A stretch of 64,000 bases of DNA from Bradymonadales bacterium (GCA_041656175.1 JBBAEA010000002.1:3697-67696), one strand, 5' to 3'; positions 2,437 through 62,676 are shown, numbered from the stretch's first letter. Notes: generated from the letters alone by a model not told the origin. Numbers and translations are program-made.

Positions 2437-2590
2437 TTTTGGGGGGCTCCGCCACCCCTACGCGCGGGCTTCTTCGTAAAATGCACAATTCGCATAAATA
2501 AAATGCGATGTGTGAGCTCAAACCGCTCATCCATCGCATTTTATATGCTCATTGCGCCTTTTACTCAGCGATCCCGCGCTACCCCCCCCT
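2437..2590 (+). repeat. Family-1 structured intergenic element (MITE/REP-like), copy 1a
   Basis: GGGGGG-loop-CCCCCC hairpin, then TACGCGCGGGCTTC, an internal palindrome, and GATCCCGCGCTACCCCCC at the far end. About 90% identical to copy 1j. Confidence 0.8.
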
Positions 2591-2617
2591 TACGCGTTGC
2601 ATGCTTGTCACTTCATA

Positions 2618-3301
2618 TTATTTCACCAAAGTCGATTTTTGCTCAGAGCTAATCACTTCGTCGAATTCACCCAAATCGTCGACGCTACAAACACGAAGCG
2701 ACAATCCGTTCTCGCGACAAAGCGTCATAGCAGTGAGATCCATAACGGCGAGTTTTTGTTCTAGGACTTCATCGAATGAAATTCGGCTAAAGCGTTTTGC
2801 GTTGGGGTTTTTATGGGGATCGCTATCGTATATTCCGTCTACTTTTGTAGCTTTTAGCAGTAAATCTGCCTTTAATTCCAGTGCCCTTAGGGCAGCAGCC
2901 GAATCTGTCGTAAAATAGGGGTTGGAAGTTCCACCAGCTACCAAAACAACCGTACCCGCCGCAAGGTAGTTCCTCGCTTTGCTAATACAGTAATCACTTG
3001 CCATGGAGGGTACAGCACTCATGGCGAGTGCATCTACTCCTGCAATGCGTAGTGCTTCAGCCAAAGCCATAGAGTTTATCACCGTGGCCATCATGCCCAT
3101 TTGATCAGCATAAGAACGATCCCAAGTACTGGCGAATTTTCCACGCATAATGTTGCCACCGCCCGTAACTATCGCCAATTCATGTCCACTTTGGTGAATT
3201 TTTTTAATAAGATTTGCAAAATGGGCTAAGGCTTCTGCATCTAGCCCAAGACCTGTTTTACCACCCAAAACCTCACCACTAAATTTGAGTAAAACACGCA
3301 T
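2618..3301 (-). CDS. pyrH: UMP kinase
   Basis: 227 aa. MRVLLKFSGE..GHELAIVTGGGNI..GTVVLVAGGTSNPYFTTD are typical amino-acid kinase / UMP kinase motifs. Confidence 0.9.
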   Translation of the reverse strand: MRVLLKFSGEVLGGKTGLGLDAEALAHFANLIKKIHQSGHELAIVTGGGNIMRGKFASTWDRSYADQMGMMATVINSMALAEALRIAGVDALAMSAVPSMASDYCISKARNYLAAGTVVLVAGGTSNPYFTTDSAAALRALELKADLLLKATKVDGIYDSDPHKNPNAKRFSRISFDEVLEQKLAVMDLTAMTLCRENGLSLRVCSVDDLGEFDEVISSEQKSTLVK

Positions 3302-3348
3302 TTATATTTTCCTATTCAATCACAGCTTGGTCAAAGCCAATGCAATTT

Positions 3349-4002
3349 TTACGGCACAGTGAAAATGACGCTAGCACCAGCTTGCCAGAGCACCGCTTTG
3401 AATACATCTTTGTTTTCATCGACTATGGAAGCATAAACGTTGACTTCAGGCAACAGCGTAATGCCAGGCGCTAGGCGCAGAGGGAGCCCTAGCATAAGAC
3501 CTGTATAAAATGCAGAACTTCCCCATATTTCTGTGCGTTCATCAGTTTTTGGAACATAAATACCAAGAAACTTCGGTCCAAAGCTGATTCCGACGAAAGG
3601 ATTAATATGGTATTCCATATAAACGGGAAGCTGAAAAGACAGAACGTGTGATGACGGATCATCCATGCCACCGGTACGAACCCATTGGTAGCCTGCCTCT
3701 AGCCCTAGACTTAGATCGAAATTTCCGCGTAAAAGCTGGTATTTGGCACCAATTTGGGCTCCTAAAAAATTGAGCTTTAGTCCAATATCGAAATTATCGG
3801 CAACACCGTAGCGTATGGCTGCCTCGAAGTTGGGATCTGTCGATGCACTAGTATTTTTGCCATCGCCCCCTGCGCCAGACGCGTTGATTGCCCATTGTAT
3901 TTCACCTTTTTCGACAGTAGCAGGCAATTGCATTGTGCTCACTGATGCACAAGCACTGAGAAAAAAGACAAAGAATAAGATAGGGAAGAGAATTCTTTTC
4001 AT
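3349..4002 (-). CDS. Hypothetical lipoprotein, probably outer-membrane associated
   Basis: 217 aa. N-terminal signal with lipobox LSAC. Beta-rich, Gly/Tyr-rich composition. No family recognised. Confidence 0.55.
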   Translation of the reverse strand: MKRILFPILFFVFFLSACASVSTMQLPATVEKGEIQWAINASGAGGDGKNTSASTDPNFEAAIRYGVADNFDIGLKLNFLGAQIGAKYQLLRGNFDLSLGLEAGYQWVRTGGMDDPSSHVLSFQLPVYMEYHINPFVGISFGPKFLGIYVPKTDERTEIWGSSAFYTGLMLGLPLRLAPGITLLPEVNVYASIVDENKDVFKAVLWQAGASVIFTVP

Positions 4003-4058
4003 GATATAAGCTAAATGCCGTTTTATAGTAAAATCGCTTTGCGCAGTGTTCTAGAGTT

Positions 4059-4210
4059 AGGGGGGTAGCGCAAGATCACCCTCATGATCGGTGCCTGAGC
4101 GTATTTTATGCATTGGATGCGCGATATGAGCGCATACAATGCATAAAATCTAACGCGAAGCCACCGATCATGAGGGAAGCTTGCGCGTAGGGGGGATATC
4201 CCCCCACAAA
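4059..4210 (-). repeat. Family-1 structured element, copy 1b (inverted orientation)
   Basis: GGGGGGTAGCGCAAGATCACC...CTTGCGCGTAGGGGGGATATCCCCCCAC. About 34-bp imperfect terminal inverted repeats. Confidence 0.8.
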
Positions 4211-4258
4211 AAAAAACATATACTAAATAACTGGCTCCATTGCGCAAAAAAGCTGCAA

Positions 4259-5368
4259 CTACTTGAATTTAATAAACAATAACAGAGCTAATAAAATAAC
4301 AAGCAGGAACAAAATGGCGGCAATGAGCAGTTTTAATACCTTACCGTGGGAGTTGACAGCAGATTTACTGTGGGCCTCGCTTGGGAGATTTTGGTAGGGC
4401 GAAATGGAGAAGTTCTGGGCAGAACTCGTGGGCGGAGCAGTGTAGGGTGCGGGCGCTTGCGGAATATTAACAGGTGGGGGAGGCGCTTGCTGCGCTTTAG
4501 CCTGTTCGGCGATGGCTTGCCTCCTAGCTAGCTCCTGCTGCTCAGCAATCGAAAGACTGGAAGGCGATGGGTTTGCGGGAGGCATAGGACTGATGGGTGG
4601 CGTAGCGGGTGCAGGCGCTGGTGGAACTTTAGCCATTTGAGGACTGGGGTTGTAAGCAGCCCTAACTTGCGGTGCTTGGCGCGGCGGCTCGAAAGGGTGA
4701 TGTGGGAGCGGTGGCTGTTCGTGGCGAATTTGCGGTTTGGGAGTGGGAACAGATACATGCGGGATAGGCGCGTTTGTGGGAGGCTGTACAGTGGATTTGG
4801 GCGACATCACGGGTGCGTGGCTTTGTGATTCGGGTACGAAATAGTCCACAACAGCCTTGATGTCAGCGGGCATTTGGTAGTTAATGACGCGGGGATCGTC
4901 AATAAAAGCGAAGTAGGACTCTGGAAATTCCTCAAACTCCATCTCCTGCCCATCGTCGCTATAAATACGCGGCGGTTGCACAGGACGCGTTTGGCGCAGC
5001 TCTTCTGTAAAAAGTAAAACCGCTTGCTCCTCGCCTGTATCGGGGTGCGAGTAAGGCGCATAAAAGCTATGAATGAAAGCATCGGAAGCGAAATTCGCAA
5101 CCATATTGGCTTGGTTCACAACAGGTGGCGAGCATTTTAGCAATATGACATGCACACCTAGCGCTAGAATCTGGTTCAACCAATTGACCCAGTCACGTAC
5201 ACCGCAAGAGTTAATGCGCTCAATCTCAGATAATTCAATCAGTAGCAGCCTACCTTGAATTTGTGATAACAAATTAACGAGTAGGTTATCCTCATCTAAA
5301 ATGCCTTGCAATTTTAGGTAAGTGTAACCATTTCCAGCGGTTAGTGTTGGTATAAATTTACGTTGCAT
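4259..5368 (-). CDS. STAS-like N-terminal domain, long Pro-rich linker, C-terminal transmembrane anchor; hypothetical
   Basis: 369 aa. N-terminal ~100 aa resemble an anti-sigma-antagonist STAS fold (GILDEDN..LIELSEIERINSCGVRDW). Then ~200 aa of P/A/Q low complexity. Ends in LLIAAILFLLVILLALLLFIKFK. Confidence 0.5.
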   Translation of the reverse strand: MQRKFIPTLTAGNGYTYLKLQGILDEDNLLVNLLSQIQGRLLLIELSEIERINSCGVRDWVNWLNQILALGVHVILLKCSPPVVNQANMVANFASDAFIHSFYAPYSHPDTGEEQAVLLFTEELRQTRPVQPPRIYSDDGQEMEFEEFPESYFAFIDDPRVINYQMPADIKAVVDYFVPESQSHAPVMSPKSTVQPPTNAPIPHVSVPTPKPQIRHEQPPLPHHPFEPPRQAPQVRAAYNPSPQMAKVPPAPAPATPPISPMPPANPSPSSLSIAEQQELARRQAIAEQAKAQQAPPPPVNIPQAPAPYTAPPTSSAQNFSISPYQNLPSEAHSKSAVNSHGKVLKLLIAAILFLLVILLALLLFIKFK

Positions 5369-5462
5369 GAATAATGTCCCGCGTACATGGTCTGTGTTCG
5401 CAACATCGAAAGAGCCCCCCCCCAGCGAGTCTAACAGGAATTACGAAGTGAAGCAAAATCAA

Positions 5463-6809
5463 TTAGCGTGTGTCCAACCTCGAATTTAGCATTAAGGGTG
5501 GTTGGCCAGTAGAAATAACAACATCGCGCCACAGATCGCTCTCTGGGTCAATGACATTGCGCTCATGCACCGACATGCGTATTGGCACATGTACGTAGCG
5601 GTCGTGGATCATCGAAATGAGCAAACCGCTGCGACCGCTCATCGCGGCGTGCACAGCAGATGCCCCAAGTCGCGCGCAATAAATCGAATCGTTGGGATTT
5701 GCCTTAGAACCACGAATAATATAACTCGGATCGATATATTTTAGGTTTAAGTTGACGCCGTCTCTCTTGGCTAGCTGAATAAATTTTTCTTTTAAAAATA
5801 CACCGATGTCAGAAAGTATTTTATTCCCTGATGCATCAACAAGGTTCGAGGCTTCGAGCAGTTCTTGGCCAGCGCCTTCGGCTACCAAGATAACCGCATG
5901 TTTTCTTCGCTCTAATCGTTTTTTTAGATTGATCCACAAACCGTTCTCGCCTTCAATATCGAAGGGCACCTCGGGAATGAGGACATAGTTTACATCGTTG
6001 GAGGCGAGCGCTGTGTGTGCAGCGATAAAGCCCGATTCGCGCCCCATTACTTTGACTAGCCCTAATCCATTAATCGCCGATACTGCCTCGGTGTGCGCGG
6101 CTTGAACAGCATTGACTGCGTGAGATACAGCAGTTTCAAAACCAAACGATCGTTGTACGAAGCTTAAATCGTTATCGATAGTTTTTGGAACCCCTACGAC
6201 GGCTAATGTTCTGTTTCTGCGTTTTGCTTCCTCGTAGATGGCGAGCGCTCCTCTTTGTGTGCCATCACCGCCGATGGTAAAGAGAATGTTGAGGTTGAGC
6301 TGTTCTATGGTATCAACGATAGCAGAGGTATCTGCGCCACCGCGTGAACTACCGAGTATGCTTCCACCATGCTCATGAATGTAGCTAACAACATCGGGCT
6401 CAAGTCGCATGGGCTCAAAAGCATAATCGTGTAAAAAACCGTTATAACCGAAAGGAATACCTATAATATTTCGCACGCCGTATTGGTACCATAGCGTCAT
6501 AACGATGGATCTAATCACATCATTGAGCCCGGGGCACAGACCACCGCAAGTTACGATTCCAGCACAAACTTTTTTGGGATCAAAAAATATTCGCTCCCTT
6601 GGACCAGCTTTCTCAAGGAGTTGTTTTTGCTGAAATATTTTTGTAATTGGCTCAGCATCCAAAACCGTGTCTATGTTGTAGATGACAGCTTCATCGTCGC
6701 TTACATAGTTGGCAATCATATCGTCTAAGCGATTGGATAGGTGTAGCGGAGACATCAACTTCGCTGGGCCTAACTTGTCGATACTAAAATCCAAGTCGTG
6801 TTTGCACAT
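5463..6809 (-). CDS. pfk: 6-phosphofructokinase (long PFK-A family form, possibly PPi-dependent)
   Basis: 448 aa. GIVTCGGLCPGLNDVIR and FTIGGDGTQRGA are PFK signatures. Confidence 0.85.
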   Translation of the reverse strand: MCKHDLDFSIDKLGPAKLMSPLHLSNRLDDMIANYVSDDEAVIYNIDTVLDAEPITKIFQQKQLLEKAGPRERIFFDPKKVCAGIVTCGGLCPGLNDVIRSIVMTLWYQYGVRNIIGIPFGYNGFLHDYAFEPMRLEPDVVSYIHEHGGSILGSSRGGADTSAIVDTIEQLNLNILFTIGGDGTQRGALAIYEEAKRRNRTLAVVGVPKTIDNDLSFVQRSFGFETAVSHAVNAVQAAHTEAVSAINGLGLVKVMGRESGFIAAHTALASNDVNYVLIPEVPFDIEGENGLWINLKKRLERRKHAVILVAEGAGQELLEASNLVDASGNKILSDIGVFLKEKFIQLAKRDGVNLNLKYIDPSYIIRGSKANPNDSIYCARLGASAVHAAMSGRSGLLISMIHDRYVHVPIRMSVHERNVIDPESDLWRDVVISTGQPPLMLNSRLDTR

Positions 6810-6902
6810 TTTACTTATTATCTTTTTTTCGTGTAGAGATTTTGGCTATATTTTAGAAAACGAGTTTTATGGTAACCACAAAATACGGAATAATTACAAA
6901 AA

Positions 6903-6932
6903 AGCCGCCAATGACGGCGGCCTTTTTGATTG
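6903..6932. terminator. Bidirectional rho-independent terminator hairpin
   Basis: GCCGCC-aatgac-GGCGGC stem, flanked by an A-run on one side and a T-run on the other. Lies between the ends of two minus-strand genes. Confidence 0.5.
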
Positions 6933-6940
6933 TGCTTTTT

Positions 6941-8065: not shown

Positions 8066-8154
8066 AACCGTGCATTAAGCCCAATAAACCCCCAACCCTG
8101 CAACAAACTACTCCCTTTAGCTATAACTTGCAAGAAACCCAAGCTCATTTTTTC

Positions 8155-9258
8155 TTACAACTGCATTGGCATAACGATAAAGTCCATTTTTTTGTTGTCT
8201 AGATCGCGGATTAAGCTGGGATTATCGGTGTCGATAATCTCTATCGAAACGCGGTCTCCATCGATTACTCTCAAAACTTCTTCAATGTATTTCCAGTTAA
8301 ATCCAACCGTGACACCTGAGCCATCGTATTCACACTCAATGGCATCATGCACCTCGCCAGCCTCGGAATCAAAAGCGTGAATTTCCAGCTGCCCGGGGCT
8401 AAGGCTTAAGCGTATGGTACCAACCTTGGCGGTGTAGTTGCTAGCGCGTTTTAGAACTTGACTAAAACTCGACCTATCAACAAGTGCTTTGTGATCTAAG
8501 AATTTTGGAATAACTTTGGTAAAGTCTGGAAACTGTCCTGGAATGAGCTGTATCGATAAAGAAATTTTTGGGCTCAAAACGATCAGTCGCTCTTTTTCTA
8601 TACCCAGTTTTAGCTCTCCACCTTCCATCACGCGATTAATCTCGATAAGACCTTTTCGTGGAATGATCACACCCTTCTCTAGCGCTTCAGGAACGTCGTT
8701 AGTGACATTCATCTTGTTCTCAACCCGCGAAAGCCTGTGACCATCGGTCGATACCATTTGTACGCGACCATCTTTGTGCAGGACGAAGAAAGCGCCGTTG
8801 AAGTCCACACGTGTTTCGTCAGTGGAGATGCTAAATATCGTTTTACTGATCATATTGGAGAGTACAGAGGCATCTATGCTTAGATTATCATCAGCGTTCA
8901 TTGTCGGAAGTGATGGAAAATCATCGACGCTACTGCACATCAAGCGCCCCTTAAAACGTCCAGACTCTAAAATAGCTTGGTTACCTTCAAGGGATATGCT
9001 CAGAGGACCAGATTGCAAAGACTTCACTGTTTCAAATAGTCGTTTTGCTCCCAAAACTATCCGCCCCTCTTCTTCCACCTTAGCATCGCAAGTACTTCGT
9101 ATCGCAAGATCCAAATCAGTACCCAAAACAGTGATGCTGTTCTCACGCGCCTCGATCATGCAGGAAGCCAAAATAGCTAACGTCGTTTTGCTTGAGCAAA
9201 CTCCTTGGATCCTTGCTAACAACTCACTAAATGCGTCTCTGTCTATGCTGAATTTCAT
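8155..9258 (-). CDS. dnaN: DNA polymerase III beta sliding clamp
   Basis: 367 aa. MKFSIDRDAFSELL..TLAILASCMIEA.. through ..FIVMPMQL, clamp family over the full length. Confidence 0.9.
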   Translation of the reverse strand: MKFSIDRDAFSELLARIQGVCSSKTTLAILASCMIEARENSITVLGTDLDLAIRSTCDAKVEEEGRIVLGAKRLFETVKSLQSGPLSISLEGNQAILESGRFKGRLMCSSVDDFPSLPTMNADDNLSIDASVLSNMISKTIFSISTDETRVDFNGAFFVLHKDGRVQMVSTDGHRLSRVENKMNVTNDVPEALEKGVIIPRKGLIEINRVMEGGELKLGIEKERLIVLSPKISLSIQLIPGQFPDFTKVIPKFLDHKALVDRSSFSQVLKRASNYTAKVGTIRLSLSPGQLEIHAFDSEAGEVHDAIECEYDGSGVTVGFNWKYIEEVLRVIDGDRVSIEIIDTDNPSLIRDLDNKKMDFIVMPMQL

Positions 9259-9299
9259 TGGTCATCCTGTTTTCTAAAAGCAAATCCCCCCTCACTTCA

Positions 9300-9560: not shown

Positions 9561-9690
9561 CTCCAGATCTGAGTGACTAGCTTATGGCGTTTACAGTGAC
9601 AAAATTGATCTCATACGATAAACTTAGAGCAACAATGCTCTGTGTGGCTGTTTGGATTTGAGCCACTGAGGCAAGATTTTAGGGTGGGAG

Positions 9691-11391: not shown

Positions 11392-11470
11392 CCATAAAAA
11401 TCTCTTTAAAATGAGAACTCAATGCAAAATTTATTCATAAAATTAACGTTCATATATACAATTTGATAAT

Positions 11471-12325
11471 ATGGATTCTATAAATCAGAATAACAACCAA
11501 CGAAGTTTCGATGCCGACGCTGCCTACGAATATCTTCGCCTGCACGGCGATTTGCTTTGCAATGCTAGACTTTCCCATTGGCGCCAAATTAGCGACGACA
11601 ACACGTTTTGGAAAACCTTATCCCAGTTCCAAGCCCCAAGTGGCGGCTTTAAAGGTGGTATCGACCCCGACTACCAGGGAGAAGTTCCCTCTGTGCACTC
11701 CACCATCGAAGCCATGCGCATTATGGTCATGCACAACCAACTTGAAGACCCACACGTGGCAAAAACCCTCGACTTCCTACGCTCATGTGTCCTTAGCGAC
11801 GGCACCTGGCAAGAGCGCGATGAGGTTTTAGCCGACCCACTTTCACCCGCATGGTATAAACCTGCCCAGTTCCGCGTCTACGAAACAGCCAGCATCGCTG
11901 GCTACGGTCTCGAACTTGGCTTCAGCGAGGCATGGGCGCCCGCCGTCCGATACGTGCGCCAAATCTGGACCCAAATGCCACTTGCCGAAACCGCACACCC
12001 CTACTGGGCAACGCTACTACTTTTGGGTCGCAGCACCGCCGACGCCGATATCAGCATCACTTTGGACGCCCTCGATAACCTGCACATGTTTGTGCGAAAG
12101 CACAAAATTGACCCTTACGACTGCTCTACCATCGTCGAAATTCTCGACGGCATAGAAGACCCCAACGTTGACGAAATCCTGTACCGCATCGCACAAATAC
12201 TCGCCCAATCCCAAGACGCTGACGGTGGAATTACCACGCAGTATAGCGAAAAATTGCGCGTACAAGGCACATTTAACGCCCTTTTTGCAGTCGCCATCAT
12301 GGCACAACGGGGAGTTTTGGAGTAA
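11471..12325 (+). CDS. Hypothetical protein with QW/prenyltransferase-like repeats
   Basis: 284 aa. Recurrent Q..(S/D)GG(F/T/I)..(W/Q) motifs: QAPSGGF, SDGTWQE, DADGGITTQY. Weak resemblance to the terpenoid cyclase / prenyltransferase alpha-alpha toroid. Confidence 0.4.
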   Translation: MDSINQNNNQRSFDADAAYEYLRLHGDLLCNARLSHWRQISDDNTFWKTLSQFQAPSGGFKGGIDPDYQGEVPSVHSTIEAMRIMVMHNQLEDPHVAKTLDFLRSCVLSDGTWQERDEVLADPLSPAWYKPAQFRVYETASIAGYGLELGFSEAWAPAVRYVRQIWTQMPLAETAHPYWATLLLLGRSTADADISITLDALDNLHMFVRKHKIDPYDCSTIVEILDGIEDPNVDEILYRIAQILAQSQDADGGITTQYSEKLRVQGTFNALFAVAIMAQRGVLE

Positions 12326-12337
12326 GGAAGTTTTGTC

Positions 12338-12490
12338 TTTGGTGGGGGGCACACTGCCCCCCTACGCGCAAGCTTCCCGCAGCATGCGCCTGCAAGCGCA
12401 AAATTTTGTGCATTGTTTCGCCTATTAGGCGAACCAACGCACAAAATGCGCTTTGCGGCCCCTGCTTTGGGCGATCTTGCGCTACCCCCC
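12338..12490 (+). repeat. Family-1 structured element, copy 1c
   Basis: GTGGGGGGCACACTGCCCCCCTACGCGCAAGCTTCC ... GGGCGATCTTGCGCTACCCCCC. Internal palindrome GCGCAAAATTTTGTGC...GCACAAAATGCGC. Confidence 0.8.
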
Positions 12491-15267: not shown

Positions 15268-15332
15268 TTAGGTGCGTGCAGCTTTAAACTAAGTGCAAAG
15301 ATTTTGCAAGTTTTTTCTTTTTTTTATGCGAT

Positions 15333-15569
15333 GAGACCTTTGCACGGCTAGAAATTGTGAATTTAATTTTACAAATCCGATACAGTTTTAAACAAAATGA
15401 GACATTTTGTAGAGAAATATACGCTGAAAATGCTAATAAAATAAGGCAGGATGACGATACAATGACATTTTATTCGAAAAGCGCTTAAAAGAGTGTTTTC
15501 TTTGGGGAAGGGGGGAAACATCTTTTCTTTGGCACAAAGAAAAGGGTTTCCCCCCGTGCAAAGCTCTCT
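15333..15569 (+). repeat. Family-3 TIR element (MITE-like), copy 3a
   Basis: Left end GAGACCTTTGCACGG, right end CCGTGCAAAGCTCTC (inverted). Internal GGGGGGAAAC...GTTTCCCCCC hairpin. Confidence 0.75.
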
Positions 15570-15717
15570 AGTTATGTTAAGAGTCAAAAATCTTTCGCGT
15601 CACATGCTGTTTGCTCACACAAAATTATTGGATAAAGCTTAAATACTCGGCTAATATATTGCACGTGGTAAAAGCCTATGCCTTTACTGCTCGAACACGC
15701 ATAAAATAAGGAAAGAC

Positions 15718-19276: not shown

Positions 19277-19421
19277 GATTGCTTTGATTTATGGGGGCTA
19301 GCGCCCCACTCAGCATGCTGAACTGATTATTTTATTCGATGATGCCGATGAGCGAACTTTATCGTTGCCCAAGCACAGCGCTCTTTTGGCGCCGTGCTGA
19401 GGAAGAACCTTGCTGCTAGCA

Positions 19422-20928: not shown

Positions 20929-21076
20929 TGGGGGTAGCGCGGGATCGCTGAGCAAAAGACGCTACAAGCGCACAAAATGCGATGGATGCGCGATTAGCAA
21001 ATACATCGCATTTTGTATTGCGCTTGTTGTCGAATTTTGCGAAGAAGCCCGCGCGTAGGGGGCTGCGCCCCCACAA
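20929..21076 (-). repeat. Family-1 structured element, copy 1d (inverted)
   Basis: GGGGGTAGCGCGGGATCGCTGAGC...CGCGCGTAGGGGGCTGCGCCCCCAC. Confidence 0.8.
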
Positions 21077-22376: not shown

Positions 22377-24956
22377 GTGATAATGACGAGTAAACGATAC
22401 GCATTATTTGAATTTGCCCCATCGTTTCGCGTGGGTACTTCGATATTTTTGATATGGCTGTTTAGCCTTTGTTTTGGATTTTTTGGCTGCGACGCAGCTA
22501 CGCCAGAGCCAGGCGAGGAACAGGGCGAGGATTTGCAGCGCGTGAGTGCGAAGGGGGCGGCCGATGTGACACTTTGGCACGCCTACCGCGGCGACGAACA
22601 GCTTGCGCTTGATGGCGCTGTTGAAGAGTTCCGAAAACTGCACCCCACATGGAAAATCGACGTTTTACCAGTCGCTGATGAGTCCTATGCCAATAAGCTC
22701 TTTACGGCGATTCCGCGGGGAAGCGGGCCCGACGTGTTTATTGCCGCCCATGACAATATTGGCTCCTGGGCCAACAACCAAATCATTGCCGATGTCGACG
22801 CGTATTTTGGCGCCGATGAACGCAAACTCTTCCACCCCCTAACGGTAGATGCGCTGCTCTATCAGCGAGAGTTGACGACGGCTGAGCGCGAACAACGAGG
22901 GCAAAAACTCGATGAAGAGCGCATTTATGCCATGCCTTTGGCCTATAAGAGCCCTGTACTATTTTACAATAAAGATCTTGTTTCTACGCCACCAAGCGAT
23001 ACGAACGAGCTTTACGCGATCATGCAAAAGCTCACCGATACGGTGTCGCAGCGCTACGGCTTTGTGTATGAGAACACGAATCTCTTCTTTCACGCGGCGT
23101 GGTTAAACGGTTTTGGTGGCACCTTATTTAATGAGGCGGGCAATGTCGAGATTGCCACCGAAAACAACGCGGCGAGCTTTGAGTTCGCGGCTAAACTCAA
23201 CGCGTACATGCCCGCTGGCGTGGATGGTGCGCGAATAGGTAAGCTCTTTAATGATGGCACGGCTGCGATGGTTATTAGTGGTCCGTGGTTTATGGCGGAA
23301 CTGCGAGAAGATCTCAACTACGGTGTAGCGACGATGCCGCTCATCAACGAGTCTGGAAACTTTGCTGCACCCTTTGTAACGGCTGAGGGAATATTTTTAT
23401 CAAAATACGCCAAAGACAAAAAATCGACGGAGCAAATTCAAAAATCTGTCGAGCTCATGCAATTTATCGCGAAAGATTCTGCGTATCGCCGACTAATCGA
23501 CGGCAAGCAGATGGTTGCCTACCTCGACGCCTACGAGCAACTCAAAGGCGATAACGACGAAAAGGCCGCTTTCATGAAAAGCGTGGCACCGACGTTTTTG
23601 GCACAGCTTGAGCATGCCTACCCCACAAGTTCTCGCCCTGAGATGGGTTCGTTGTGGGCTAGCATGCGCCAGGCGCTGCAAAAATCTTTGTTCGGCGGAC
23701 CCTCGGGCGAAACGCCATATTGGTTGTTTTTGCTCATTTCGGTCTTTGTAGCCGCTCTACTTCTTTTGTCTAAGGCGACAAACCCGAGTCTAAACACCAA
23801 GCGAAGTCAACAATTATACGTTGCGGGTTCTATCCTATCGTTTGTGGCGCTCATTCCCATTATTTGGCGCATCGCGTCTATTCAAGGAGTGAACCGCCAG
23901 GTCGAACCGATGAAGGCGTTGATGGAAGCGCAAAATCGTTTCTTGCAACTCAAAGCGCCAGCGATGGAGGCGGCAAACCCTGGTCCCTTCCTGGCCGTCG
24001 TTTGCGGAATTTTGCTCATCATCATGATCCTCAGCATCAAAGCGTATAAGCGCCACAAGGCCAAAAACATCGAATACACGGATAACAAAGTGGCGGCTGC
24101 TTTCGTGGCACCAGCCATCATCGGCATGATCGTTTTGGTTATTACGCCCTTTACCGTGGGTGCTGCGCTATCCTTTTTTAGCTACCAAAACGGCGAGTTT
24201 ATTTTCGTGGGTGCCCAAAACTTCGTGCGGCTATTTTCGACGCAACAGGCATCATTTACAGATTCGCTCTCGTTTTACTTCACGCTTGTGGTTACCGTTT
24301 TGTGGACGGTGGTGAACGTTTCATTGCACGTTTGCTTCGGTATTATATTGGCACTGCTACTACGCGATCCTTGGCTGAAACTCAAAGGGATGTACCGTGT
24401 ATTATTCATCATTCCGTGGGCAATGCCGAACTATATTACGGCGCTTATTTGGCGCGGCATGTTTGATACGTCGTTTGGCGCTATCAACGGAATTTTAGTT
24501 TCGCTTGGCCTAAACCGCGTCGAGTGGTTTAACGAGTTTTTAACCTCGTTTTCTGCCAACCTTATTACCAACACTTGGCTGGGCTTCCCCTTCATGATGG
24601 TGGTAACGTTGGGCGCGCTACAAGCGATCCCCCGAGATCTCGAAGATGCCGCCTCCGTCGACGGTGCAAACGCCATACAGCGCTTCCGAAACGTCACCTT
24701 CCCGCTGCTCAAACCAGCGCTTATGCCCGCGGTTATTTTGGGCTCGGTTTGGACCTTCAACGCCTTTAACATCATTTACTTAGTGAGCATGGGAAACCCC
24801 GATGGCTCAACCGAAATATTGGTTTCCGAGGCGTATAAGTGGGCCTTTGAGCGCCAGTTCCAATACGGTTACGCTGCCGCCTACGCCATGGTCGTATTCT
24901 TTATCCTAGTCGTATACTCTAAGTTGACGCAACTCGTTTTGGAGGACAAACAATGA
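22377..24956 (+). CDS. Fusion protein: periplasmic sugar-binding lipoprotein (SBP family 1, MalE-like) joined to a MalF-type ABC permease
   Basis: 859 aa. Lipobox FFGC. About 440 aa of SBP fold (WHAY..DVFIAAHDNIGSW). Then 6 or more TM segments carrying the EAA loop EDAASVDGANAIQRFRNVTFP. Confidence 0.75.
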   Translation: MIMTSKRYALFEFAPSFRVGTSIFLIWLFSLCFGFFGCDAATPEPGEEQGEDLQRVSAKGAADVTLWHAYRGDEQLALDGAVEEFRKLHPTWKIDVLPVADESYANKLFTAIPRGSGPDVFIAAHDNIGSWANNQIIADVDAYFGADERKLFHPLTVDALLYQRELTTAEREQRGQKLDEERIYAMPLAYKSPVLFYNKDLVSTPPSDTNELYAIMQKLTDTVSQRYGFVYENTNLFFHAAWLNGFGGTLFNEAGNVEIATENNAASFEFAAKLNAYMPAGVDGARIGKLFNDGTAAMVISGPWFMAELREDLNYGVATMPLINESGNFAAPFVTAEGIFLSKYAKDKKSTEQIQKSVELMQFIAKDSAYRRLIDGKQMVAYLDAYEQLKGDNDEKAAFMKSVAPTFLAQLEHAYPTSSRPEMGSLWASMRQALQKSLFGGPSGETPYWLFLLISVFVAALLLLSKATNPSLNTKRSQQLYVAGSILSFVALIPIIWRIASIQGVNRQVEPMKALMEAQNRFLQLKAPAMEAANPGPFLAVVCGILLIIMILSIKAYKRHKAKNIEYTDNKVAAAFVAPAIIGMIVLVITPFTVGAALSFFSYQNGEFIFVGAQNFVRLFSTQQASFTDSLSFYFTLVVTVLWTVVNVSLHVCFGIILALLLRDPWLKLKGMYRVLFIIPWAMPNYITALIWRGMFDTSFGAINGILVSLGLNRVEWFNEFLTSFSANLITNTWLGFPFMMVVTLGALQAIPRDLEDAASVDGANAIQRFRNVTFPLLKPALMPAVILGSVWTFNAFNIIYLVSMGNPDGSTEILVSEAYKWAFERQFQYGYAAAYAMVVFFILVVYSKLTQLVLEDKQ

Positions 24957-25855
24957 GTAAAGCCAGCAAAAAACAATGGGTAGACCGCCCAGTGAGCATC
25001 AGTCGTGGGCGCGCCATGCTCAAAGGTGGCTTAACACACTTGGCGCTCAGCATTGCCGCCTTCATCGTCATTTACCCCGTACTCTGGGTCGTCAAAATGG
25101 CGCTCACCCCAAACCGCGAGGCAGGGCTCGATCCCAACCCCTTTATCGACCCTAGCAAAGCATCACTAGAAAACTTCGAGTACGTCCTTTTCCGAACGGA
25201 TGTCGCTGGAAACTCACTTTTCGCGCACCAACTTTTTAATTCTATTGTCATCGCCGCATTAACTACCATTATCGGCGTTGTCTTAGCCTGCACCGCCGCA
25301 TACGGCTTTAGTCGCCTCAAATTCATTGGCCGCGAAGTTGGCCTCCAAGGCTTCCTCGTCACGCAAATGTTCCCAGGCGTAGTCATGGCCATCCCTCTCT
25401 ACATCCTACTGGGCAAACTCGGCCTGCTCAACTCCATCGTCGGCCTTGTACTCGTCTACTCCGTTTCGGCGCTCCCTTTCTGCGTCTGGAACCTTAAGGG
25501 CTATTTCGACACCATACCCAAAGAACTCGAAGAAGCCGCCATTGTCGACGGCGCCTCGCGACTCAAAATCTTTACCACCATCGTCTTGCCCCTCGCGCGC
25601 CCCGCTATCGCCATCACCGCCCTATTCTCCTTCATGACCGCGTGGAACGAATTTATCCTCGCCGCAACCCTCATGAACAAAGAACTCGCCTACACCCTGC
25701 CCGTCGCCCTCAAACAATTCGTCGGCGCCCAGTCCGCCGACTACGGCTACTTCGCCGCGGGTGCCATACTCGTATCCATCCCCATCATGGCGCTGTTCTT
25801 TGCCTTGCAAAAAAACTTGGTCGGTGGCCTTACTGCCGGCGGCGTCAAAGGTTAA
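24953..25855 (+). CDS. Sugar ABC transporter permease (MalG/UgpE type)
   Basis: 300 aa. EAA motif EEAAIVDGASRLKIFTTIVLP. Overlaps the upstream gene by 4 bp. Confidence 0.85.
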   Translation: MSKASKKQWVDRPVSISRGRAMLKGGLTHLALSIAAFIVIYPVLWVVKMALTPNREAGLDPNPFIDPSKASLENFEYVLFRTDVAGNSLFAHQLFNSIVIAALTTIIGVVLACTAAYGFSRLKFIGREVGLQGFLVTQMFPGVVMAIPLYILLGKLGLLNSIVGLVLVYSVSALPFCVWNLKGYFDTIPKELEEAAIVDGASRLKIFTTIVLPLARPAIAITALFSFMTAWNEFILAATLMNKELAYTLPVALKQFVGAQSADYGYFAAGAILVSIPIMALFFALQKNLVGGLTAGGVKG

Positions 25856-25877: not shown

Positions 25878-26031
25878 TTGTGGGGGGCTAAAGCCCCCCT
25901 ACGCGCGGGCTTCTTCGCAAAATTCGACAATTCGCGCATCATTTTGTGCAACGTTTCGACTATTCGTCGAACCATTGCACAAAATGCGCTCATTGCGCCT
26001 TTTGCTCAGCGATCCCGCGCTACCCCCCCCC
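25878..26031 (+). repeat. Family-1 structured element, copy 1e
   Basis: TTGTGGGGGGCTAAAGCCCCCCTACGCGCGGGCTTCTTCG ... GATCCCGCGCTACCCCCCCC. Confidence 0.8.
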
Positions 26032-26087: not shown

Positions 26088-26500
26088 CTTTCGTGTTTTT
26101 CGTGGTAAAAATGCTGTTCGTGGCATTCGTGGTTCATAATTTAAAGACACGAAAGGCACGGAAGACCATAACAAATCAAGCTGGTTCTGAAAGAATAAAA
26201 AATCTTCTCGTGTGTTTTCGAGTTTTTCGTGGTTCATAATTTAAAGACACGAAAGGCACGAAAGACCATAACAAATCAAGCTGGTTCTGTAAGAATAAAA
26301 AACTTTTCGTGTGTTTTCGTGTTTTTCGTGGTTCAAAATTTAAAGACACGAAAGGCACGAAAGACCATAACAAATCAAGCTGGTTCTGTAAGAATAAAAA
26401 ACTTTTCGTGTGTTTTCGTGTTTTTCGTGGCAAAAAAATCTTTTCGTGTGTTTTCGTGTTTTTCGTGGTAAAAAAGCTTTCGTGGTAAAAAATCTGTTCG
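26088..26500 (+). repeat. Tandem array A: 3 units of about 100 bp plus 2-3 units of about 38 bp. Each long unit is an imperfect hairpin built from CACGAAA/TTTCGTG heptamers
   Basis: Unit starts at 26126, 26226 and 26325 are near-identical. TTTCGTGG(C/T)AAAAAA recurs. Directly preceded by an orphan family-3 left TIR, GAGACCTTTGCACGGC at 26072-26087. Confidence 0.85.
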
Positions 26501-32442: not shown

Positions 32443-32596
32443 TTGTGGGCGGGGGAAGTGTCCCCCCTCGCCAAAGCCTCCTCACAAAATACAGCAGCGA
32501 GCGCTTTATAAAATGCGGTGTTTTAGCTATTCGCTAAACCACCGCATTTTATGCGTTCGCTGTGCCTTTTCTTCGGGGGTCTTTGGCTCCCCCCTC
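32443..32596 (+). repeat. Family-1 structured element, copy 1f (degenerate)
   Basis: TTTTGTGGGCGGGGGAAGTGTCCCCCCTCGCC...GGGGGTCTTTGGCTCCCCCCTC. Internal palindrome AAAATGCGGTG...CACCGCATTTT. Confidence 0.6.
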
Positions 32597-34839: not shown

Positions 34840-34968
34840 TTTGAAAGCTGCCCCTTTCTTTATTAACGCCAAAAATTAGACGGGGCGTCGCGGGGTGTCC
34901 CCGCGGAGGGGGTAGTGGCAAACCCGCGCACAGCGCGGGGTTGACACGTAGGGGGAAACTTCCCCCAC
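34840..34968 (+). repeat. Composite fragment: family-4 hairpin (GGGGGCAGCTTTGAAAGCTGCCCC) followed by a miniature family-1-like terminus
   Basis: GGGGGTAGTGGCAAACCCGCGCACAGCGCGGGG...CGTAGGGGGAAACTTCCCCCAC resembles reverse-orientation family-1 ends. Confidence 0.5.
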
Positions 34969-38824: not shown

Positions 38825-39221
38825 CTTTCGTGTCTTTAAATTTTTAACCACGAAAGCCACGAAAACACACGAAAAGTTTTTTATTCTTAGATGTCCAGCT
38901 TGATATGTAATAATCTTTCGTGCCTTTTGTGTCTTTAAATTTTTAACCACGAAAGCCACGAAAACACACGAAAAGTTTTTTATTCTTAGATGTCCAGCTT
39001 GATATGTAATAATCTTTCGTGTATTTCGTGGCAAAAAAAAAGCTTTCGAGCCTTTCGTGTATTTCGTGGCAAAAAAAAGCTTTCGAGCCTTTCGTGTATT
39101 TCGTGGTAAAAAAGCTTTCGAGCCTTTTGTGTATTTCGTGGCAAAAAAAGCTTTCGCGCCTTTCGTGTATTTCGTGGTAAAAAAGCTTTCGAGCCTTTTG
39201 TGTATTTCGTGGCAAAAAAAG
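38825..39221 (-). repeat. Tandem array B: 2 units of about 100 bp plus 6 units of about 37 bp. Reverse-complement, diverged relative of array A
   Basis: Units at 38835 and 38934 are near-identical. Then six copies of CGTGTATTTCGTGG(C/T)AAAAAAAGCTTTCGAGCCTTT. About 85% identical to the array-A unit on the opposite strand. Confidence 0.85.
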
Positions 39222-40796: not shown

Positions 40797-41032
40797 CCTT
40801 TGCAAGGCTAGTAATAATGAATTTTATTTTATAAATTCTATACAGTTTAAAACAAAATGAGACATTTTGTAGAGAAGCATAAGTTAATAGTGCTAATCAT
40901 ATAAGACAGGTAGAAGATAGAATGACATTTTATTTGAAAATTGCTTAAAAGAGTGTTTTTTTTGGGGAGGGGGGGCGAGGGGAAGCTTTTTGCTTTTGCA
41001 AAAAGAAAAAAGCTTCCCCCCGCGCAAAGCTC
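40797..41032 (+). repeat. Family-3 TIR element, copy 3b
   Basis: CCTTTGCAAGGCTAG...ACAAAATGAGACATTTTGTAGAGAA...GCTTAAAAGAGTG...GGAAGCTTTTTGCTTTTGCAAAAAGAAAAAAGCTTCC...GCGCAAAGCTC. Confidence 0.7.
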
Positions 41033-42635: not shown

Positions 42636-42781
42636 TTGTGGGGGAGCGCCCCCTACGCGCGGGCTTCCTCGTAAATATCACAATTCGCGCCTTATTTTGT
42701 GCGCTGTATCGGCTATTCGCCAACCCAGCGCACAAAATGCGCTCATGGTGCTATTTCCTCGGCGATCCCGCGCTACCCCCC
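42636..42781 (+). repeat. Family-1 structured element, copy 1g
   Basis: TTTGTGGGGGAGCGCCCCCTACGCGCGGGCTTCCTCG...GGCGATCCCGCGCTACCCCCC. Followed by TTAAGGAAACTCTGATATATG and an inverted family-4 terminal fragment at 42803-42835. Confidence 0.8.
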
Positions 42782-49883: not shown

Positions 49884-50036
49884 GAGGGGGAGCGCAAGAT
49901 CACCCAAAAAAGTCGCCTATTGCCGCACGCTGTGCGAAGGCCGAGCGTATAGCGAGGACTTTGCACGGCGTAAAGCGGCAATTGGCGAATTTTGAGGGAA
50001 GCTTGCGCGCGGGGGAGTAATCCCCCGCCTTCCCCA
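49884..50036 (-). repeat. Family-1 structured element, copy 1h (inverted)
   Basis: GAGGGGGAGCGCAAGATCACC...GAGGGAAGCTTGCGCGCGGGGGAGTAATCCCCCGCC. Confidence 0.8.
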
Positions 50037-52965: not shown

Positions 52966-53062
52966 AAAAATACTTTTCTTAGCAAGTTTGATGCGGGTTC
53001 CAGTTTCAAAGAACAAAATACTTGTCTTAGCAAGTTTGATGCGGGTTCCAGTTTCAAAGAAC
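52966..53062 (+). repeat. 51-bp tandem duplication (2 copies) abutting the left end of MITE 3c
   Basis: CTTAGCAAGTTTGATGCGGGTTCCAGTTTCAAAGAAC occurs twice. Confidence 0.7.
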
Positions 53063-53388
53063 GAGACCTTTGCACGGCTAGAAATAACGAATTTAATTTT
53101 ACAAATTCGATACAGCCTTAAACAAAATGAGACATTTTGTAGAGAGATATAAGCTAAAATGCTAATAAAATAAGGCAAGGCGAAGGTAAAATGACGTTTT
53201 ATTCGAAAAGCGCTTAAAAGAGTGCTTTCTTTTTAGTGCCACAGCCGTCCAGGCTGTGGCCGCTTCGCGCGCGGCCTCAGCCGCGACCAATCGCTGACAT
53301 CCATGTCGCGATTGAAGGGGAGGGGGGTACGGGGGGAACCTTTTTTCTTTTGCAAAAAGAAAAAAGGTTCCCCCCGCGCAAAGCTCTC
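53063..53388 (+). repeat. Family-3 TIR element, copy 3c, with a 100-bp internal insertion
   Basis: GAGACCTTTGCACGGCTAGAAATAACGAATTTAATTTTACAAAT......GGAACCTTTTTTCTTTTGCAAAAAGAAAAAAGGTTCC..GCGCAAAGCTCTC. Extra GC-rich hairpin GCCACAGCCGTCCAGGCTGTGGC. Confidence 0.75.
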
Positions 53389-53391
53389 AAG

Positions 53392-54609: not shown

Positions 54610-54647
54610 CAGCTACTCCTTTGCGCAAAAACTTCCCTTAAAGTGGG

Positions 54648-54680
54648 CAAAAAAAAACCGTCATTGACATGACGGTTCCA
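54648..54680 (-). terminator. Rho-independent terminator downstream of dfx
   Basis: On the minus strand: AACCGTCATGTCAATGACGGTT stem followed by T9. Confidence 0.6.
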
Positions 54681-54694
54681 AATCGCTCTAACAG

Positions 54695-55274: not shown

Positions 55275-55423
55275 TGTGGGGGGCTATTGCCCCCCTACGC
55301 GCAAGCTGCCCGCAAAATTCGGCAAGAGCCGCTGTATTTAATGCGCCGTTCACGCTAATCGCGTGACCAGCGCATTAAATGCGTCTCTAGCCGAATTTTG
55401 CGGGTGATCTTGCGCTACCCCCC
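55275..55423 (+). repeat. Family-1 structured element, copy 1i
   Basis: TTTTTGTGGGGGGCTATTGCCCCCCTACGCGCAAGCTGCC...GGGTGATCTTGCGCTACCCCCC. Internal palindrome TTTAATGCGC...GCGCATTAAAT. Confidence 0.8.
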
Positions 55424-55450
55424 AGACCGCAACTAAACCAATAACAGCAA

Positions 55451-60478: not shown

Positions 60479-60655
60479 CTCGCTTGCCCTTTCTTATCCA
60501 AAACATGCCCATCGACCCGTTCGACATCAATCGGATACCATCAAACTAGCGTACTCTCAATATTGGCTAACTGATAAAATGAAGCAAGAAAGCTCAATAG
60601 CTCAGAGCATCCTTAGGGAAACTCTGAAATATTCGATATTTATGACTTTTGCTCT

Positions 60656-60809
60656 TGTGGGGGGCTATTGCCCCCCTACGCGCGGGCTTCCTCGTAAAAT
60701 GCGACAATTCGCATAAATAAAATGCGATGTATTCGCTCAAACCGCTCATTCATCGCATTTTATGTGCTCATTGCGCATTTTCCTCGGCGATCCCGCGCTA
60801 CCCCCCCCC
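60656..60809 (+). repeat. Family-1 structured element, copy 1j
   Basis: CTTGTGGGGGGCTATTGCCCCCCTACGCGCGGGCTTCCTCG...GGCGATCCCGCGCTACCCCCCCCC. About 90% identical to copy 1a. Confidence 0.8.
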
Positions 60810-60965
60810 AGCGTTTCACGCGAAAGAAAATGTGCACAGTCTCTCCCTATTCTCTTCATTCCTATAAGATTGACGCCCGTTGCTAAGCTCTTTATACTTT
60901 TGTTACATCTTTTCGCGTTGCCAGATCGCGGCGCAATGTTTTTTGTTCAACCTAGGAGTTTGTCT

Positions 60966-62519
60966 ATGATTCTTCGAAGCACCGTCATTGAAAATCGCTA
61001 TTTTGATTCAGTTTTTCTCATGAGCTTAGCCGCGGAGCTTAAGAAGATGGGCGGCGTACTGGACGCCTCCGCGCTTATGGGAACAGATAGTAACAAGGAT
61101 TTACTCAAGGATAGTGGGCTTTTGGATGATATCGCGAAATCCGCGGCTCCCAATGACCTTATTTTAAGCGTCAAAATCGAGAATGAATCGCAGTATCCCT
61201 CCATAAAAGAGCGCATCGACAAATTTTTGGCAGGCGAGGACGATGCTGCGCCGAAGAAGAGGTCGGGGCGCGGGGAGCAAGTGGCGCATACTATTGAGGA
61301 GGGTTTAGATATTTTGGAGGATGCAAATCTACTCCATATCTCGATCCCTGGGCCTTTTGTGTATAACGAGGCGTTGCGCGCCATCGATAAGGGGCTAAAT
61401 CTCTTTATCTTCTCCGATAACGTTTCGATCGAAGAGGAGCGCATCATTAAAGAAGAGGCTAAAAAACGGGATCTCCTCGTCATGGGTCCCGACTGCGGAA
61501 CCGCCATCATCAACGGCGTTGGCCTTGGTTTTGCAAACGTCGTCCCCCGCGGCCCACTCGCCGTTATCGGCGCGTCGGGAACGGGGATACAGGAAATAAC
61601 ATGCTTGGCCGCGCAACGCGGCATTGGAATCGCTCAGGCCATCGGTTTGGGGGGACGCGACCTTCGCAAAGAAATTGGCGCCATATCGATGTTGCAAGCC
61701 CTCGATATGATCGAAACGCAAAGCGAAGTTAAGGTGATTTGTTTGGTCTCAAAACCTGCACACCCCGATAGTATGGCCAAAATCATGGCTCGCGCTGAAC
61801 GCATGAATCTGCCGATCATAGCCTGTTTCCTCGGTGCGAGCACAGAAATCGCGCATCCCAAAAACGTTCACATCGCCACTCGCCTTGATGAAGCTGTCGA
61901 TATGGTGGAAGCCGTACTACGCGGTGAAACCCCAAAGAGAAGCGATAAGGCCATCATTAGCGAAACATGCTTGGCTAAGCTCCAAGAGCGAAAGGCGAAA
62001 CTGCCCGCTACGCGCAAAAACATTAAGGGGCTGTTTAGCGGCGGTACTCTTTGCGACGAAGCGCTGTATATGGCTAAGTCCTTGAAACTCGAAAAGATCC
62101 AAAGCAACCTTGTCGCAGATAGCGATCCCATGGCTATTATTAATGATGGGCAAAACGCAAACCTATTCCTCGACATGGGGGACGACAAGTTTACGCGCGG
62201 ACGCCCACACCCCATGATCGAGTTTGGCTATCGCATGGAGCGAGTACGCGCTGAAGCCGCAAGAGCAGAGACCGCCGTTATTTTACTCGATCTCGTTATA
62301 GGCTATGGTTCGCACAAAGATCCGCTTGCAGCACTGCTGCCCGTTATCGAGGAGTTCAACAAGGACAGCGATCCCGTCTTCGTACTCTCGATCACGGGGA
62401 CAGCGCAAGATCCGCAAAACCTTGAGCAGATTAAAACGCAAGTGAAAGCCGCTGGCGCGTGGATTGCAAAGAGTAACGCGCAGGCCGCTGCGATGGCCAT
62501 CGAGTTTGTGAAGCGCTAG
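60966..62519 (+). CDS. fdrA: FdrA-family protein (succinyl-CoA-synthetase-alpha-like / acyl-CoA synthetase FdrA)
   Basis: MILRSTVIENRYFDSVFLMSLAAELKK resembles the FdrA N-terminus. Internal CoA-binding and ligase-CoA domains: GIQEITCLAAQRGIGIAQAIGLGGRD. About 517 aa from this start. Confidence 0.75.
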   Translation: MILRSTVIENRYFDSVFLMSLAAELKKMGGVLDASALMGTDSNKDLLKDSGLLDDIAKSAAPNDLILSVKIENESQYPSIKERIDKFLAGEDDAAPKKRSGRGEQVAHTIEEGLDILEDANLLHISIPGPFVYNEALRAIDKGLNLFIFSDNVSIEEERIIKEEAKKRDLLVMGPDCGTAIINGVGLGFANVVPRGPLAVIGASGTGIQEITCLAAQRGIGIAQAIGLGGRDLRKEIGAISMLQALDMIETQSEVKVICLVSKPAHPDSMAKIMARAERMNLPIIACFLGASTEIAHPKNVHIATRLDEAVDMVEAVLRGETPKRSDKAIISETCLAKLQERKAKLPATRKNIKGLFSGGTLCDEALYMAKSLKLEKIQSNLVADSDPMAIINDGQNANLFLDMGDDKFTRGRPHPMIEFGYRMERVRAEAARAETAVILLDLVIGYGSHKDPLAALLPVIEEFNKDSDPVFVLSITGTAQDPQNLEQIKTQVKAAGAWIAKSNAQAAAMAIEFVKR

Positions 62520-62524
62520 GCACT

Positions 62525-62676
62525 GAGGGGGAGCGCAAGATCACCTGAGGAATTCGCTTAGTTACGCACACTGTGCATAAGTCGAGCGTATAGCGAGAAT
62601 TTTGCACAGTGTATCGCGGAACTTAGCGAATAATGAGGGAAGCTTGCGCGGGGGGGAGACTTCCCCCCTCCCCAAA
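62525..62676 (-). repeat. Family-1 structured element, copy 1k (inverted)
   Basis: GAGGGGGAGCGCAAGATCACC...GAGGGAAGCTTGCGCGGGGGGGAGACTTCCCCCCTCC. Confidence 0.8.

Follow-up and report, generated by a model that had tools for sequence, protein, structure and literature searches.

Dispersed palindromic repeats of the REP (repetitive extragenic palindromic) type, including REPINs, have been studied mostly in Gammaproteobacteria. The element considered here, Family 1, is an abundant intergenic palindrome found in a 64,000-nt stretch of DNA (the window; GCA_041656175.1, JBBAEA010000002.1:3697-67696) from an uncultured predatory bacterium of the Bradymonadales (Myxococcota). The defining mark of the GTAG REP class is the tetranucleotide GTAG beside a G+C-rich stem of 5-13 bp (PMC3733652). 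REP-associated Y1 transposases, TnpA(REP), read GTAG on single-stranded DNA in a strand-specific manner, and a 5-bp REP is a substrate of the Marinomonas enzyme, for which covariation of guide and cleavage site has been shown (PMC8266576). Composite repeats of Pseudomonas and Stenotrophomonas occur in hundreds of copies, some of which are self-complementary (PMC3733652). The main text of that survey mentions neither "delta" nor "Myxococc", and the literature yielded no description of such repeats in Bradymonadales and nothing relevant on REP-associated tyrosine transposases (RAYTs) in Myxococcota. Family 1 appears to be a non-autonomous REP/REPIN-like palindromic element of a Bradymonadales lineage whose movement, as folded single-stranded DNA, would depend on a Y1 (RAYT-type) transposase, a reading to which we assign a probability of about 0.55. 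Much more certain is its place among dispersed repeats of the REP/MITE (miniature inverted-repeat transposable element) kind in the broad sense, and it is most likely a passenger mobile element, not a terminator.

An nhmmer profile made from seven copies detects exactly 11 full copies (141-148 bp) in the window, seven on the plus and four on the minus strand, or about one per 5.8 kb. A first-pass annotation, made from the sequence alone, had counted eleven full copies and a miniature of about 60 bp, with six or seven copies facing one way, and these counts stand (the miniature measures 59 nt, 34908-34966). In the orientation used by that annotation, the alignment gives a G5-6/loop/C5-6 hairpin (the head), then TACGCGCRRGCTTC, a variable centre and the tail GATCYYGCGCTAC5-6; the G- and C-runs of the head are 4-7 nt long. 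Of the two diagnostic end motifs, the window contains 5 and 10 occurrences, where shuffled sequence would give 0.00 and 0.16; two further sites resembling the tail motif, at 19293 and 45485, have no relation to Family 1. These ends, ascribed by the annotation to every copy, are present in 8 of the 11; copies 32451, 49886 and 62527 carry variants, for example CTCGCCAAAGCC...TCTTTGGCTCCCCCC and GCCAAAG/CTTTGGC, which are themselves compensated. Each centre had also been called a perfect palindrome; the palindromic fold is confirmed, but the palindromes are only near-perfect and their bulges are conserved.

Each of the 11 window copies folds into a small 5' hairpin followed by a long hairpin of ~125 nt (z -6.3 to -12.7); among 200 shuffles, no fold as good arose. 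From an alignment of 150 copies, made with MAFFT and not fitted to any structure, RNAalifold derives 36 pairs, 30 of which contain double changes. Standard pairs form in 94.8% of cells, against 34-45% when the partners are slid by 1-3 columns; the same sliding gives 109-252 instead of 893 cells changed on both sides and covariation scores of 0.06-0.12 instead of 0.457. For pairing, double changes and covariation alike, 0 of 500 shuffles reach the observed value, which strongly bears out the claim that substitutions keep the pairing. Between nearest-neighbour copies (at least 85% identical), 62 compensated Watson-Crick doubles are found where chance would give ~2-6, together with 71 pair-breaking single changes and 30 changes between Watson-Crick and wobble pairs; divergence amounts to 0.046 per paired site and 0.114 per unpaired site. 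The variable pairs are almost purely Watson-Crick, A-T to T-A and G-C to C-G swaps being common and one-sided (G.U) states near zero except at three outer pairs. Conservation covers the ends, the apical GCTATTCGC region and, at the foot of the long hairpin, an asymmetric internal loop in which AAGCTTCC faces GGYGATC; the ~40 bp between these parts vary freely provided that Watson-Crick pairing stays. Among near-identical copies the head loop is far more variable than the body. No Rfam family matches the element under either gathering or E-value thresholds, the best match to a copy (26.3 bits, threshold 100) being a generic hairpin match; only four tRNAs reach the gathering threshold in the window. 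The first-pass annotation had attributed the compensation to selection on RNA or cruciform structure. The structure is indeed kept paired, but the substitutions indicate a folded single strand of DNA and not a classical structured RNA or a symmetric duplex or cruciform, because the variable pairs are near-purely Watson-Crick and one strand folds better than the other. By analogy with REPINs, compensatory change would not alone imply a host function, because it has already been described for those elements (PMC3116915).

The better-folding strand is the reverse complement of the annotation's orientation: under DNA parameters 158 of 159 copies favour it, by 6.5 kcal/mol, and under RNA parameters 147 of 159. 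The difference resides in the long hairpin, not in the head. This is the GTAG strand whatever the direction of transcription, and it reads G5-6, GTA|G-~125-nt imperfect hairpin, GTA|G-G5-6/loop/C5-6, 1-5 variable nt and an A-rich tract, with its 5' G-run matching its 3' C-run. GTAG thus lies at the 5' foot of both hairpins, as in the published definition of the class (PMC3733652), and the resemblance to REP elements that the annotation had remarked on is apt. At the head, the C-run followed by TAC (GTAG plus the G-run on the other strand) is present in 125 of 159 copies, with GAAG, GCG and others as variants; at the long hairpin, the preceding GTA|G corresponds to the tail GCGCTAC5-6 of 8 of the 11 window copies. 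The head hairpin has a stem of 5-7 bp and a loop of 2-9 nt, and in the related metagenome loci (~1.1 Mb) it never occurs alone, always with body and tail.

The ends are asymmetric, with the extra hairpin and a T-tract on one side only. In the annotation's orientation the left flank is T-rich (60-75% T at -12 to -4) and is separated from the head by 1-5 variable bases, most often as TTTTGT (36 of 159); the right flank shows no conservation. At none of the 128 boundary offsets tried in 159 copies do target-site duplications of at least 3 bp exceed the level in shuffled pairs. The head variant TGGCA|G6...C6|TTC behaves as a unit on different bodies in seven of seven cases and may be a head module that reassorts with bodies. 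An analogy with the guide/cleavage-site covariation of the Marinomonas enzyme would be weak, because heads of the related Family B with TCC or TGC keep the usual flank.

Family B has the frame of Family 1 (T-tract, G5-AAGTTT-C5, TAC, ..., TA-C5) around a 33-nt instead of a 125-nt hairpin, and includes the window miniature and ~40 relatives in related metagenome loci. Other T-tract-bearing G5-loop-C5 hairpins belong to further Family-1 variants or to Family B. A shared frame with different bodies is as expected if the machinery reads the ends. In the window the Family-B miniature (to ~34880) is followed by a further hairpin, GCGGGG-ACA-CCCCGC.

Beyond the window, a two-ended pattern of 27 positions retrieved 113 metagenome stretches (1.0 Mb in total), nearly all from JGI sample Ga0265293 and a few from Ga0187788 and PDWJ01. 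They contain 173 matches, 153 of which are full copies (80 plus, 73 minus), and the family, which is found in at least four organisms, is thus not confined to the 64-kb region. With the window included, all 160 Family-1 cores differ in sequence; mean pairwise identity is 65% and median identity to the nearest neighbour 90%. PDWJ01 copies have G+C-rich stems with the same ends and apical loop as elsewhere. JGI, ENA, NCBI and Logan assemblies all contain the window locus itself at 99-100% identity, and strains at this identity hold identical copies. The nearest relative by arginyl-tRNA synthetase (ArgRS, 71% identity; Logan SRR25909830) has two Family-1 copies in 17 kb and keeps the order kinase, sigma factor, argS, fmt, aldehyde dehydrogenase. 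The sigma/argS spacer is occupied in both species (49886 in the window, L181 9676-9823 in the relative), with flanks that no longer align; this may be an old orthologous insertion or a coincidence, the latter being, on a rough estimate, the distinctly less probable of the two. The second copy of the relative is not syntenic. Family 1 was not found in 22 kb examined in each of three relatives at ~63% ArgRS identity, and therefore, given its presence in the metagenome stretches and the 71% relative, it is common to a subclade and not limited to the window or to one genome. The ~63% relatives have one G5-loop-C5 hairpin each (L182 19846-19861, within AT-rich sequence; L184 7891-7906, adjoined by a T-run and a G-run), and these may be distant cousins of the head module. 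A scan of a 596-Gb genome collection with the 17-mer GATCYYGCGCTACCCCC, a pattern too short for the purpose, gave only chance matches in G+C-rich genomes, and comparison of Family 1 with viral contigs and with plasmids gave no match.

Assembly contigs break at these repeats. Two Logan contigs of the same species end within copy 12344-12490 (window 12384), and a contig of another metagenome-assembled genome (MAG) begins at window 26177, ~150 nt past copy 25882-26028 and within the tandem repeat beside it. Multi-copy repeats cause just such breaks, and Family-1 copies fragment short-read MAGs of the group, which is their practical effect.

These features suggest how the element could spread. A trans-acting HUH/Y1 tyrosine transposase, of the RAYT or IS200-IS605 type, would recognise one strand in its folded single-stranded form and would cut and join it; only lineages with a still-folding strand would keep spreading. 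Spread that depends on folding would explain why the changes are compensatory and Watson-Crick, why the strands differ, why target-site duplications are absent and why the ends are unequal; correction of one arm by the other may also owe something to template switching within the quasi-palindrome. We favour single-strand transfer by a Y1/HUH enzyme because of the dispersal in both orientations, the unequal conserved ends, the pairing of the interior, the favoured strand, the GTAG tags, the lack of duplication and the frame shared with Family B. The strand specificity (158 of 159 copies) fits the strand-specific recognition of single-stranded DNA by TnpA(REP) and IS200/IS605 enzymes (PMC8266576).

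Several observations weigh against this proposal. Gene calls and Pfam show no transposase of any kind in the window, and the ~1.1 Mb of related DNA contains no Y1 or RAYT gene as judged by multi-copy open reading frame (ORF) families, phmmer matches to E. coli RayT or a HUH..Y regular expression. This sample probably covers only part of the related genomes, and a RAYT gene is easily missed in it because RAYTs are usually single-copy. The two GTAG units stand in tandem, not inverted as in a REPIN, and a REP is much shorter than this element. In the window and loci L068-L180, 69 of 83 adjacent pairs of copies have opposite orientations and 14 the same one; such alternation of neighbours is the reverse of a regional bias, and targeting of the lagging strand as by IS200/IS605 would not predict it. 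Family-B heads with GGAG or GCAG retain the same flank, though the head variant GAAG/TGCCA fits a model of guide and cleavage site. All 160 cores differ, so nothing points to very recent bursts. The strains compared, which at 99-100% identity carry identical copies, showed neither an empty site nor an insertion polymorphism, and the spacers of the 71% relative, searched for empty orthologous sites, do not align with those of the window. It is thus from dispersal that we infer mobility, and the enzyme and the continued movement of copies are proposed in the same conditional sense.

The Family-1 copies of the window and their neighbours are as follows:

2441..2587, plus strand: Family-1 copy (nhmmer E=3e-37; fold z=-9.7), between the 5' end of secA (-) and the 3' end of a pyrH-like kinase gene (-)
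4060..4205, minus strand: Family-1 copy (E=2e-34; z=-12.5), between co-directional (-) genes, an outer-membrane-protein beta-barrel gene (217 aa) and a 369-aa gene
12344..12490, plus strand: Family-1 copy (E=2.5e-35; z=-8.6), its head beginning 19 nt past the stop of a 284-aa gene, 11471-12325 (+)
20930..21072, minus strand: Family-1 copy in a divergent spacer (E=9e-40; z=-8.4), between a serpin gene (-) and a malK-like ABC ATPase gene (+)
25882..26028, plus strand: Family-1 copy (E=1e-41; z=-9.2), 27 nt past the stop of an ABC permease gene, 24953-25855 (+)
32451..32594, plus strand: divergent-sequence Family-1 copy with ends GCCAAAG/CTTTGGC (E=4e-22; z=-11.2), in the divergent spacer of a sigma-54 activator gene (-) and asnA (+)
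34908..34966, minus strand: 59-nt miniature, a Family-B member (sequence and fold)
42641..42781, plus strand: Family-1 copy (E=3e-32; z=-6.3), between a 477-aa gene and an isoamylase-like gene, both (-)
49886..50026, minus strand: divergent-sequence Family-1 copy (E=7e-21; z=-8.5), in the spacer of a sigma-70 factor gene and argS
55278..55423, plus strand: Family-1 copy (E=2e-37; z=-12.7), its tail 28 nt from the 3' end of a 1675-aa gene (-)
60659..60806, plus strand: Family-1 copy in a divergent spacer (E=6e-41; z=-10.0), between the 1675-aa gene (-) and a CoA-ligase-like gene (+) (Pfam)
62527..62668, minus strand: divergent-sequence Family-1 copy (E=8.5e-18; z=-8.0), immediately past the stop (62519) of the CoA-ligase-like gene

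All 11 lie between genes, as the first-pass annotation had stated, and ORFs over the copies are spurious calls. The further claim that they usually sit at gene 3' ends does not hold: three window copies (20930, 32451, 60659) and 35 copies overall lie in divergent spacers, which have no 3' ends. The overall figures come from 134 copies whose context was taken from a crude gene caller and expressed in the element's own frame:

co-directional genes, element read head to tail: 45 of 134 copies
co-directional genes, element read tail to head: 35 of 134 copies
divergent spacer: 35 of 134 copies (26%)
convergent spacer: 19 of 134 copies

The orientation of copies does not follow the direction of transcription. 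For genes that run towards the head, the median distance from stop codon to head is 29-36 nt. Pairs within 3 kb of each other comprise 19 tail-to-tail, 8 head-to-head and 0 genuine direct arrangements. Genes between tail-to-tail pairs, judged by eye from their translations, are ordinary (GNAT-, SpoU- and KsgA-like), and composite transposons are rejected on the grounds of this cargo. Local hopping as the origin of the alternation is rejected as well, neighbours being no more alike than random pairs. Elsewhere in the window, dnaN (8155-9258, -) has no adjacent dnaA; a LamB-like porin gene lies upstream instead.

The suggestion that the copies act as terminators fails because both anatomy and placement contradict it. 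Neither hairpin is followed by a T-run on either strand: the T-tract lies 5' of the head, and on the other strand it is an A-tract that follows the head. A terminator scan of the window does not flag the main hairpins of the elements, and a G+C hairpin that lacks a following U-tract, placed in both orientations (45 against 35) and in 26% of cases in divergent spacers, is rejected as an intrinsic terminator. The same scan picks up a real bidirectional intrinsic terminator at 6897-6928, a G+C stem then a T-run, and an ordinary one of the same build is readable at ~54650-54690 (-). For the proposed role as messenger RNA stabilisers, nothing in the data gives support. The wider idea that the host selects the copies as structured RNA, transcribed and acting as terminators, 3'-end stabilisers or small RNAs under locus-by-locus selection on RNA structure, is unlikely. 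It would agree with the strong covariation, with stems more conserved than loops, with heads lying at about 30 nt past stop codons and with a sigma/argS spacer occupied in two species at 71% ArgRS identity despite unalignable flanks, and such co-option of REPs is known (PMC3733652). Against it stand the missing U-tracts, the silence of the scan beside true terminators that look different, the near-even orientations and the divergent spacers; in addition, G.U intermediates are nearly absent, the better-folding strand is set by the element and not by the direction of transcription, and Rfam offers no match (26 bits against a threshold of 100). Also improbable is that the host keeps the copies as strand-specific DNA or RNA structural modules, for example as boundary or topology elements. 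Were this true, it would explain the alternation of neighbours (69 of 83) and the heads ~30 nt past stops, as well as the 160 non-identical copies that all fold and the spacer shared at 71% ArgRS identity.

Two further explanations concern the origin of the palindrome. A classical MITE, that is, a deletion derivative of an insertion sequence (IS) with a DDE transposase, recognised through double-stranded terminal inverted repeats, would show the size and intergenic dispersal found here; the ends do form an imperfect inverted repeat, TA(C)GCGCRRG(C/A)T(T)C, and TA is present on both flanks of this repeat, as in IS630/mariner-type elements. This origin is nonetheless improbable. Among the 159 copies no duplication of 3 bp or more is found at any of the 128 offsets; if the TA were the duplication, an empty target G5-loop-C5-TA-C5 would be expected, and the 1.1 Mb contains no empty copy, nor any IS or multi-copy transposase ORF. 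One end alone has the extra hairpin and T-tract, which makes the two ends strongly unequal, and the whole interior is constrained by pairing, for which a mechanism acting on double-stranded inverted repeats has no need. A different doubt attaches to the compensation itself, which might be a mutational by-product of template switching or repair copying one arm onto the other, with no selection on structure. Template-switch correction of quasi-palindromes is established in E. coli, which counts in favour of this possibility, as do the Watson-Crick-only changes, the frequent transversion swaps, the almost complete lack of intermediates and the compensated doubles that separate even near-identical copies. 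As a full explanation it is nevertheless very doubtful: symmetric copying would erase the conserved bulges, the internal loop and the asymmetry of head and tail, all of which persist in 150 copies, and the better folding of one strand in 158 of 159 copies would not result from it; dispersal and conserved ends would also go unexplained. Template switching probably helps to match the arms, as a contributor to transfer of a folded single strand and not as its replacement. Some other readings were rejected. Integron attC sites do not fit copies dispersed among housekeeping genes in both orientations, without arrays and with no integrase gene in the window; a retroposon origin of the T/A tract is at odds with the impurity of the tract and the lack of duplication. 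No DNA uptake (DUS/USS) motifs were found.

Much of the space between genes in this lineage is taken up by Family 1 together with no fewer than four further repeat families. A dispersed repeat of ~245 bp occurs at window positions 15320-15570 and 40797-41032, and ~17 Ga0265293 stretches match it at 78-93% identity; another of ~330 bp (53060-53391) has at least 10 relatives at 82-93% identity in Ga0265293 loci. Tandem arrays with a ~100-bp unit lie at 26117-26437 and 38825-39221. The unit is common to many related loci, and the copy number of the array varies between strains of the same species. Outside the window, a 78-nt element of four hairpins is nested in Family-1 copies at two positions and in both orientations (L122 10041-10118, L148 3453-3528, L163 3412-3487 and 146-218, L171 600-672). 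Because seven of its nine matches lie inside Family 1, this element seems to target Family-1 copies.

The presence of Family 1 in Bradymonadales would extend the known range of long-lived intragenomic sequence populations. Its 160 distinct copies, with ~40 freely covarying pairs, a strand bias and a frame shared with Family B, would be good material for asking what a single-strand transposase reads.

Among described systems, GTAG REPs and their mosaics, the BIMEs (bacterial interspersed mosaic elements), share several features with Family 1: GTAG directly 5' of a G+C-rich stem-loop, abundant extragenic copies, subfamilies set apart by complementary changes in the stem while loops vary, and modules that join other stem-loops as mosaics (PMC3733652). 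Cleavage of GTAG REPs by TnpA(REP) is strand-specific and acts on single strands (PMC8266576). Tag and abundance are those of a GTAG REP. In stem and size the head hairpin by itself fits, but it always comes with body and tail, and the whole Family-1 unit measures 141-148 nt against 20-40 nt for a REP. Also unlike the usual GTAG REPs are the two tandem GTAG hairpins of very unequal size, an arrangement that is rare according to PMC3733652, the T/A-rich tract at one end and the lack of a RAYT gene for Family 1 in the window and the ~1.1 Mb. REPINs resemble it as hairpin-forming units of ~100 nt with conserved ends and a less conserved but compensated spacer, in the 5' tail of their putative intermediate, which is complementary to the 3' end, and as a population of diverged, non-identical copies (PMC3116915). 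In contrast to REPINs, which consist of two inverted REPs, the GTAG/CTAC motifs of Family 1 have the same polarity (C6-TAC in the head, GCG-CTAC-C5 in the tail), and the arms of the long hairpin are not REP copies.

The composite REP-plus-stem-loop repeats and the self-complementary terminal inverted repeats that flank RAYT/TIRYT genes in Pseudomonas and Stenotrophomonas likewise combine a degenerate GTAG unit with an unrelated stem-loop (PMC3733652); however, they have no sequence relationship to Family 1 and are defined by the adjoining Y1 transposase gene. With the ends of IS200/IS605 elements and PATEs (palindrome-associated transposable elements), Family 1 shares subterminal hairpins, the absence of classical terminal inverted repeats and of target-site duplications, and one conserved and one unconserved flank; their mechanism is strand-specific on single-stranded DNA. 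Unlike IS200/IS605, it shows a T-rich tract and a variable spacer with no defined 4-5 nt target resolved, its neighbours alternate where one replication-linked bias would be expected, and no tnpA or tnpB gene is seen. ERIC/IRU (enterobacterial repetitive intergenic consensus/intergenic repeat unit) and Correia (NEMIS) elements are also intergenic imperfect palindromes of 100-150 bp that occur in both orientations and are often co-transcribed with neighbouring genes; their sequences are unrelated, their hosts are Enterobacteria and Neisseria, and Correia elements have 26-bp terminal inverted repeats and a TA duplication, whereas Family 1 has no duplication. We class Family 1 as a new REP/REPIN-type family whose tandem-hairpin build is unusual, and not as a proven RAYT substrate.

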